NCBI GenBank assembly: GCA_030043815.1
Contig: JASHWX010000189.1
Coordinates: forward strand, 1-32,048
Length of the DNA: 32,048 nt
Direction: 5' to 3'
Source of the DNA: Candidatus Rhabdochlamydia sp.
GTDB taxonomy: Bacteria; Chlamydiota; Chlamydiia; Chlamydiales; Rhabdochlamydiaceae
Each line of letters starts with the position of its first letter. Position 1 is the stretch's first letter. Shown piece by piece: positions 15,024 through 15,396 of this stretch. The position numbers were made by a program, and so were the translations under genes. The notes below the pieces were generated by a model. That model made no database searches, was not told the origin of the DNA, and saw only the letters and a program-made list of their open reading frames with translations.

Positions 15024-15096
15024 GAGACTTTAGCTCAGTCGGTAGAGCATCTCACTTTTAATGAGAGGGTCGATGGTTCGAGTCCATCAAGTCTCA
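15024..15096 (+). tRNA. tRNA-Lys (TTT)
   Basis: Acceptor GAGACTT/AAGTCTC-A, anticodon arm TCTCA-CTTTTAA-TGAGA, T-arm GATGG-TTCGAGT-CCATC. Confidence 0.96.
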
Positions 15097-15396
15097 AATT
15101 TTTTTCTCGAAAAAAATTTCGAGACTTGAGCAGCCACGGTGTGGCTGCGTGTGGACTCGAAGTGAAGCAGCCTTGCGCTGCGAACCGGCTTTCAGGACGA
15201 CGACGCACGCAGTGCGCATCGCCTGAAAGGAGTCCATCAAATGCCTCAAGCTTTTCTCGAAAAAAATTTCGAGACTTGAGCAGCCACGGTGTGGCTGCGT
15301 GTGGACTCGAAGTGAAGCAGCCTTGAGCTGCGAACCGGCTTTCAGGACGACGACGCACGCAGTGCGCATCGCCTGAAAGGCGTCCAGCAAGTCTCA
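15097..15396 (+). repeat. Two tandem 150-bp structured units anchored on the tRNA-Lys 3' end
   Basis: 15102-15240 vs 15252-15390 are identical except at 3 positions. Each unit contains an inverted copy (GAGACTTGA...TGGACTCGAA) and ends in a direct copy (GAGTCCATCAA / GCGTCCAGCAAGTCTCA) of the tRNA 3' end. Confidence 0.95.

Follow-up and report, generated by a model that had tools for sequence, protein, structure and literature searches.

Tandem repeats behind chlamydial tRNA genes carry a split, tRNA-matched mirror of the tRNA tail and belong to the unexplained TLR kind

As repeats that copy the end of the gene in front of them, the TLRs of Escherichia coli are a long-known feature of tRNA and rRNA operons. 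The 3' end of each is identical to that of the upstream tRNA or rRNA, and 22 of them are described at ten loci, with a 3' repeat of 18-19 bp and one to five copies per locus (PMC8144298). The same work lists a strain from which all 22 are missing. They include the 178-bp repeats of tyrT with the RtT RNA, the lys repeats, and rrA, rrB and rrF, and have been known since 1978 (Egan & Landy 1978 and Rudd 1999, both cited in PMC8144298). According to the same article RtT and RrB are transcribed and processed to a defined RNA, and TLRs had no known function as of 2021; the words 'inverted' and 'mobile' are absent from its main text. A preprint describes raised coverage of the tyrT region, which its authors take as RNA/DNA hybrids (bioRxiv 10.1101/2024.07.17.603846). 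When we examined E. coli K-12, part of the T-stem/acceptor strand turned up in inverted orientation in the tyrT repeats, and an inverted T arm in the lysQ unit; the rrB TLR and the internal lys TLRs of E. coli show no clear mirror, and proL has no such repeat. Here we describe a chlamydial family of repeat units that is a variant of this known but unexplained kind, with a split mirror copy matched to the tRNA.

Folded single-strand sites such as IMEX attP (CTXphi-type) and integron attC are recombined by a tyrosine recombinase, with the enzyme supplied in trans. The chlamydial units resemble these in an imperfect fold-back that would rebuild a double-stranded site, in extra unpaired bases, and in an enzyme that we propose to act in trans; they differ in their target, which is the tRNA T loop and not dif or attI, and in having no cargo inside. 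Tyrosine-integrase islands, as PMC4383910 presents them, likewise show a restored tRNA with a displaced 3' fragment, a junction in the T-arm region, and tandem arrays. They measure 2-200 kb, however, whereas the units measure about 150 bp, have no integrase, and possess an inverted tail copy and DNA hairpins; with no gene in 104 units and periods of 93-160 nt, the units fall outside the island class. The Ssn-associated NTS/SRM repeats (PMC11893778) and the REP/BIME-RAYT systems share with the units the design of short hairpin repeats that act, or in the units would act, as single-stranded DNA, and tandem amplification. The Ssn/SRM repeats differ in not being tRNA-anchored ('tRNA' is absent from the main text of PMC11893778), their SRM pattern occurs in 0 of 59 units, and no small GIY-YIG gene flanked by the unit repeat was found. 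As for REP/BIME-RAYT, the Y1 HUH transposase does not track the units (17 of 55 genomes with units versus 13 of 41 others), and unit copies are mostly tRNA-anchored.

The window, meaning the whole stretch of DNA analysed, comprises 32,048 nucleotides of Candidatus Rhabdochlamydia sp. (contig JASHWX010000189.1), and all features given here lie on its forward strand. A sigma70-like promoter at 14860-14889, recognised by pattern only (11 of 12 consensus matches), stands before a pair of genes, tRNA-Glu(TTC) at 14907-14981 and tRNA-Lys(TTT) at 15024-15096, the latter with no encoded CCA. A small perfect hairpin lies between the two (14987-15015). The T loop of tRNA-Lys starts with GGTTC at 15075-15079, and a direct repeat of 2 x 150 nt with 94% identity (15080-15229 and 15230-15379) follows at once, so that the repeat starts at G57 within the T loop. 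Unit 1 (15080-15229), in the mobile register that we infer from the tail comparisons and the MITE copies described below, consists in order of the tRNA tail from G57, an AT-rich spacer hairpin, a split inverted copy, a core, and hairpin C. The tail (15080-15096; tRNA positions 57-73) is the pairing partner of the inverted copy, and is 17 nt long in chlamydial units because CCA is not encoded. The spacer (15097-15120) is a fold-back of a T-run and an A-run, and in relatives it is often a full intrinsic terminator. The inverted copy (15121-15161) has an acceptor part at 15121-15129 and a T-stem/T-loop part at 15152-15161, split by hairpin A (15130-15148). The conserved core (15159-15188) runs from GAAGTGAA through hairpin B to GAACCGG, in which GAACC inverts the GGTTC of the T-loop start, while the next two bases, GG, open the direct tail copy. 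Hairpin C (15189-15229), a variable module with a C(GCA)G triloop, occupies the place of the T loop's TTC in the displaced tail; the unit is thus a head-to-head mirror of the last 22 bases of the tRNA, with three hairpins let in. Unit 2 (15230-15379), a direct repeat in the same register, opens with a tail copy (15230-15246) that agrees with the tRNA tail at 13 of 17 positions, and the last displaced tail copy (15380-15396) agrees at 15 of 17.

Folded as DNA, tail and mirror form one long stem that includes the TTC/GAA pairing (z -10.4). The RNA minimum free energy of 15271-15396 is -63.8 kcal/mol (z -4.95, with 0 of 200 shuffles equally stable), and this fold contains all six helices that an earlier, sequence-only reading had named in unit 2. 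That reading was right that the repeat is real, but placed its start at GAGACTT instead of in the T loop at 15080; it also took the inverted copy for an acceptor stem only, whereas the copy spans T stem and T loop as well and pairs with the own tail of tRNA-Lys. The near-identity that it saw between the units holds (between 15121-15246 and 15271-15396 there are 7 differences over 126 positions, and six of these fall within the last 16 nt). The 3' end of unit 1, which it called degenerate, reads ATCAAATGCCTC, a sequence also present in the Lys units of relatives (L022), and is therefore likely a swapped-in patch and not the product of random decay. Its placing of the units downstream of the tRNA promoter with no terminator agrees with the promoter call and with a terminator scan of 15097-15400, which gave no site, with the qualification that a seven-T run directly behind tRNA-Lys forms an AT-rich fold-back. 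The construction, which it did not recognise, is not unique, given the inverted pieces in the E. coli tyrT repeats and lysQ unit. A search of Rfam over the units, which might have assigned them to a described family, gave no family at gathering score nor at E values up to 10. A protein-coding reading was rejected: ORFs of 98-120 aa cross the repeat, but periods in the family are not tied to multiples of 3 (10 of 30), which indicates that no coding constraint acts on the units.

Related copies exist well beyond the window. A DNA search found the family in 14 of 61 related genomes, all within the window's chlamydial family, and a core pattern search of GTDB gave 78 loci with titles mostly of Chlamydiae, Rhabdochlamydiaceae, Parachlamydiales, 'Verrucomicrobia' or unclassified origin; seven were discarded as chance, having no hairpin A and no T loop (L050, L061, L080, L090, L096, L102 and L116). 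A covariance model built on the stretch from hairpin A to the core end matched in 55 of 96 genomes of the window's family, a patchy distribution, and in 21 of 149 class genomes (three families); whole genera are without a match (0 of 9 and 0 of 6), which absence or divergence may explain. The own genome, 74% complete and with 24 tRNAs assembled, has six matches: two at Lys, two at Ser-TGA, one of Phe type at a contig start, and one away from tRNAs. Across the family, units stand behind Lys, Phe, Leu (CAA, TAG, TAA), Ser, Met, Thr and Tyr tRNAs and tmRNA, and also behind half-tRNA island scars. There are 1 to about 7 copies per locus, and tandem arrays reach about 6.5 copies at 100% identity. 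The phage and plasmid collections gave no match to the units; two pattern matches in IMG/VR, both without the hairpins, were judged chance.

Like the TLRs of E. coli, then, the chlamydial units are tandem repeats in a tRNA operon behind an RNA gene, ending in its 3' end from the T loop on, and their copy range of 1 to about 7 compares with one to five. Both also have a hairpin, AAC(C)GG and CCC-GNA-GGG before the tail. The chlamydial mirror is longer, is split by two hairpins and has been re-matched to many tRNAs and to tmRNA, unlike that of E. coli. As to homology between the two, there is no RtT (RF00391) match in Rfam, the chlamydial model misses the E. coli loci, and one short motif is shared. 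In the literature we found neither the chlamydial family nor mirror copies in TLRs described; the inverted piece may be noted in Egan & Landy (1978), Rudd (1999) or Bosl & Kersten (1991).

Where a copy stands beside another tRNA, it has the tail of that tRNA in both inverted and direct form, a point on which the sequence-only reading had proposed to check its idea of a minimal element. Among 59 distinct tRNA-proximal units compared with 25 tails, the mirror copy fits the own tail best in 49, with 6 ties and 4 misses, at least one of the latter a mis-parse; the downstream direct copy fits best in 40, with 4 ties and 15 misses. Of 58 first units, 27 have the same 16 nt of tail on both sides, and 15 have no downstream tail by the strict pattern, some owing to a small deletion or a contig edge. 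The remaining 16 have differing tails; in 13 of these the mirror goes with the upstream tail and in 2 with the downstream one, and one is a tie. An acceptor-like stem of at least 6 pairs with the upstream tail is possible in 47 of 58 units, and with the unit's own downstream tail in 30 of 53. Since the mirror follows the upstream tail, the acceptor stem rebuilt in unit 2 is a by-product of tandem repetition, and is a secondary pairing. Within the downstream tails the acceptor part decays and the T-stem part stays. The mirror copies have themselves drifted (849 matches against 76 mismatches and 22 indels; the T-stem mirror has 12 insertions of a single base), a sign that they have long been inherited vertically and were not often retargeted.

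The register of the unit is fixed by copies lying outside tRNA genes. In one relative (G004), model matches away from tRNAs lie inside a dispersed MITE of about 163 bp with terminal inverted repeats. Its empty form occurs in three genomes (G001, G004 and G013), with 9 distinct copies and 2 more distant look-alikes, and its filled form in 10 distinct copies in G004 and partly in G002 (loci L205, L207-L213 and L245 in G004; L022:8296-8457, L247, L251 and L256 in G013; L248 and L252 in G001). The insert is a tail-mirror-core module of about 96 nt that starts with a tRNA-Leu(CAA)-like tail, followed by the mirror, hairpin A and the core. Its insertion site, GG-CGC-GAG (of the type GG-NNC-GAG), resembles GG-TTC-GAG, and both junctions lie at a T-loop-like GAG; the filled left junction reads CTC in place of TTC and the core starts GAG in place of GAA, a compensatory pair. 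The pair shows that a T-loop-like site need not be part of a tRNA for the module to insert there, within the limits of one event, an insert that has no hairpin C, and junctions that are not base-perfect; microhomology capture could also have produced the filled form. A tree of the MITE flanks, unrooted and poorly resolved, was used only for the wider spread of the empty form. The terminal inverted repeats of the MITE are of TATACC type; G013 has dozens of copies, and G004 a tRNA-tail subfamily. Exchange is also seen inside the own genome, where the Lys units bear a hairpin C known from the Phe units of relatives and the Phe unit bears a Lys-type hairpin B, which indicates that modules move between arrays.

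The helices of the unit covary, as the sequence-only reading had proposed to check. Hairpins A and B are paired in 94.8% of cells, with two-sided changes in 12 of 14 pairs, compared with at most 46% paired in slid controls. Hairpin A has 482 Watson-Crick, 8 G-T, 10 A-C and 20 other pairs (about 519 in total), and the tail-mirror stem has 18 G-T and 18 A-C pairs; in the control, the acceptor and T stems of 17 of the own genome's 24 tRNAs, 188 of 204 pairs are Watson-Crick, 16 are G-T and none is A-C. GNA triloops are especially stable in DNA. Such triloops, with the middle base varying, occur in hairpin C on the top strand in 23 of 60 variants and on the bottom strand in 3 (shuffle expectation 2.2 and 1.0, a few of the 60 regions being mis-bounded), and no UUCG loop was seen there; as relatives are not independent samples, the pairing and triloop counts overstate significance. 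Given the ratio of G-T to A-C pairs (8 to 10, against 16 to 0 in tRNAs) and the one-strand GNA triloops, the unit stems look like DNA, without the wobble bias of RNA.

We hypothesize that the units are non-autonomous elements that insert, as single-stranded DNA in folded form, into the T loop of tRNA genes. This is our best reading, which we regard as somewhat probable, and it ranks above, in this order, an RNA trailer or antisense, island scars, a tRNA mimic and a nuclease cassette. [quoted passage not shown] Against it stand the lack of a mobilising gene, the single MITE event, the drift of the mirror, and the processed RNAs that E. coli members of the design give, as described in PMC8144298. 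An arriving unit would supply a new tail from position 57 onward, so restoring the tRNA and shifting the old tail downstream, where hairpin C would substitute for its TTC. Once the DNA is single-stranded, the mirror would pair both with the tail and with three T-loop bases on the 5' side of the junction, and this pairing might rebuild a double-stranded T-arm site or serve as a base-pairing guide; the constant core is a predicted protein-binding site. Arrays could grow by re-insertion or by recombination between tail copies. The mobilising enzyme would have to act in trans, and by analogy with IMEX attP and integron attC our guess is a tyrosine recombinase acting on the folded strand (host XerC/D or a passing integrase).

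Genes near the units were surveyed with such an enzyme in mind. None of 104 first units, metagenome loci included, has a gene between core and tail, and no autonomous unit was found. The first ORF downstream was classified for 95 arrays, out of 96 candidates of which the omitted one had no Pfam match; it is mostly hot-spot cargo such as toxin-antitoxin, Bro-N, YhcG, Fic and AAA genes; one is a tyrosine integrase and one an IS-type integrase core, and none is a GIY-YIG gene, a Y1 transposase or a reverse transcriptase. Tyrosine recombinases occur in 95 of 96 family genomes, with only two matches in each of several unit-rich genomes (G022, G074, G077, G080, G082, G103 and G137); in the own genome there is one tyrosine recombinase, and Y1 transposases are absent. 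Contigs of 4 DNA runs from one study, none of which spans the array, gave no circle and no excision joint within it.

A second explanation, which we judge rather unlikely, is that the units serve the host as RNA elements within its tRNA operon: they would form a read-through trailer cut at the repeated tail as in RtT and RrB, and the mirror would sequester the 3' end of the pre-tRNA as an antisense in cis. The units do lie on the same strand as the tRNA and downstream of its promoter, the match to the tRNA is better preserved in the proximal mirror than in the distal tail (49 versus 40 of 59), and the 3' end of RrB maps 3 nt behind the repeated tail, as reported in PMC8144298. Folding tRNA-Lys and unit 1 together as RNA loses the acceptor and T arms of the tRNA to the mirror copy, which, if co-transcribed, would unfold the 3' half of the tRNA. 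Yet the stems show no G-U bias, the triloops are of DNA type and hairpin C has no UUCG. Tail and mirror are set apart by a T-run in 48 of 59 units, and by a terminator-like GC hairpin with a T-run in 17 of 59; the copy number varies from 1 to about 7, and copies behind half-tRNA scars or inside the MITE have no tRNA to regulate. A processed RNA may nevertheless come from the units, given that RtT and RrB are such RNAs.

That the units are leftovers of ordinary tyrosine-integrase islands, att sites whose cargo was deleted and which slippage then expanded, appears improbable. A tRNA with a displaced 3' fragment is the signature of an island, and sites in the T-stem region are common among those covered by PMC4383910. 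The same tRNAs are island hot spots, an integrase lies right behind the unit in L025, and accessory genes stand behind many arrays. However, the tRNA-Phe islands cross over in the anticodon loop, have arm sequences of their own, and carry units as passengers within their att sites; a single core is shared by units at seven or more tRNA types and at tmRNA, and decayed scars would keep neither covarying hairpins nor a mirror copy. Islands themselves were seen at several loci: tandem islands of tyrosine-integrase type, with att sites in the anticodon loop, conserved arm sequences and toxin-antitoxin, Bro-N, YhcG or Schlafen cargo, stand at tRNA-Phe and tRNA-Lys in L021, L023, L025, L027, L039 and L081, the last of which resembles an emptied island with both arms joined. 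In the window, a very AT-rich spacer (15700-15930) is followed by accessory genes (15930-19058; a lipoprotein-like ORF, and a YhcG/DUF1016 nuclease at 17622-18707), which marks the tRNA-Lys site as a plasticity spot here too. A group II intron lies in an island region behind a tRNA array in G239 (L234:10116-12209).

The first of the two proposals of the sequence-only reading, that the unit is released as a tRNA mimic of about 126 nt whose own ends close an acceptor stem, with trimming by RNase P/Z and addition of CCA, now looks very unlikely. Unit 2 folds exactly in this way and 30 of 53 first units could form the stem with the downstream tail, but 23 of 53 cannot close it with their own ends, and the acceptor part of downstream tails decays. 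The mirror, moreover, follows the upstream tail (13 versus 2), and the stems have no G-U bias. The T loop is a feature read by tRNA-recognising enzymes, and in the units it is replaced; they thus lack both a consistently closed acceptor stem and the T loop of tRNA-like small RNAs of the mascRNA/tmRNA type. Least probable of all, and only a slight chance in our estimate, is that a cassette lodged at tRNA ends and encoding a small single-strand nuclease of GIY-YIG (Ssn-like) type uses the units as its substrates: Ssn nucleases cut single-stranded DNA beside hairpin repeats (PMC11893778), and the family genome G140 has a 79-aa GIY-YIG gene fused behind tRNA-Ser, but G140 is without a unit, the protein occurs in 2 of 250 class genomes (G140, and G222 at L155) of which only G222 has units, the SRM pattern is absent from all 59 units, no GIY-YIG gene is among the 95 downstream ORFs, GIY-YIG matches in the window's family are mostly UvrC-sized, and no unit core was seen at 18 of 19 short-frame GIY-YIG loci examined. 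In G140 the gene (L135:1477-1716) is joined to tRNA-Ser(GGA) through a short double-hairpin leader, and it represents a different tRNA-tail cassette, rare in the class.

Reading the units as mobile DNA invites a wider and more tentative proposal, which we consider possible but doubtful: that TLRs from E. coli tyrT to the chlamydiae form one widespread class of gene-less mobile DNA, in which a built-in DNA guide, mirroring the T arm of a tRNA and adaptable to any tRNA, would select the target by pairing with that arm when the DNA is single-stranded, and an enzyme of the host or acting in trans would bind the hairpin core. Such a class would amount to a natural system for site-specific insertion that is DNA-guided and retargetable. 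The chlamydial family supplies natural experiments beyond those of E. coli (one core across at least 7 tRNA types and tmRNA, DNA-type stems, and an empty/filled pair that fixes the junction at the T loop), and makes the nature of TLRs directly testable on the repeats of E. coli K-12. Should the mirror copy prove to be a targeting guide, it would add a new way of inserting DNA site-specifically; should the units be nothing more than RNA trailers or scars, the result amounts to the description of one family and is of modest weight.

Several variants depart from the common form. In a tmRNA variant (L230 in G088 and L221 in G001) the core has GAGTTGA in place of GAAGTGA, a change that goes with the T-arm sequence of tmRNA. 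A long core with an extra module between the mirror copy and GAACCGG is found in L229 and L117, the former standing behind a decayed tRNA tail. In the genome G000 a unit on the minus strand (contig C161, about 6020-6300; L202) is not beside a tRNA and has its own pseudo-tail, with about 220 nt of RNA-like sequence upstream, which Rfam does not recognise, and a long AT-rich hairpin behind.
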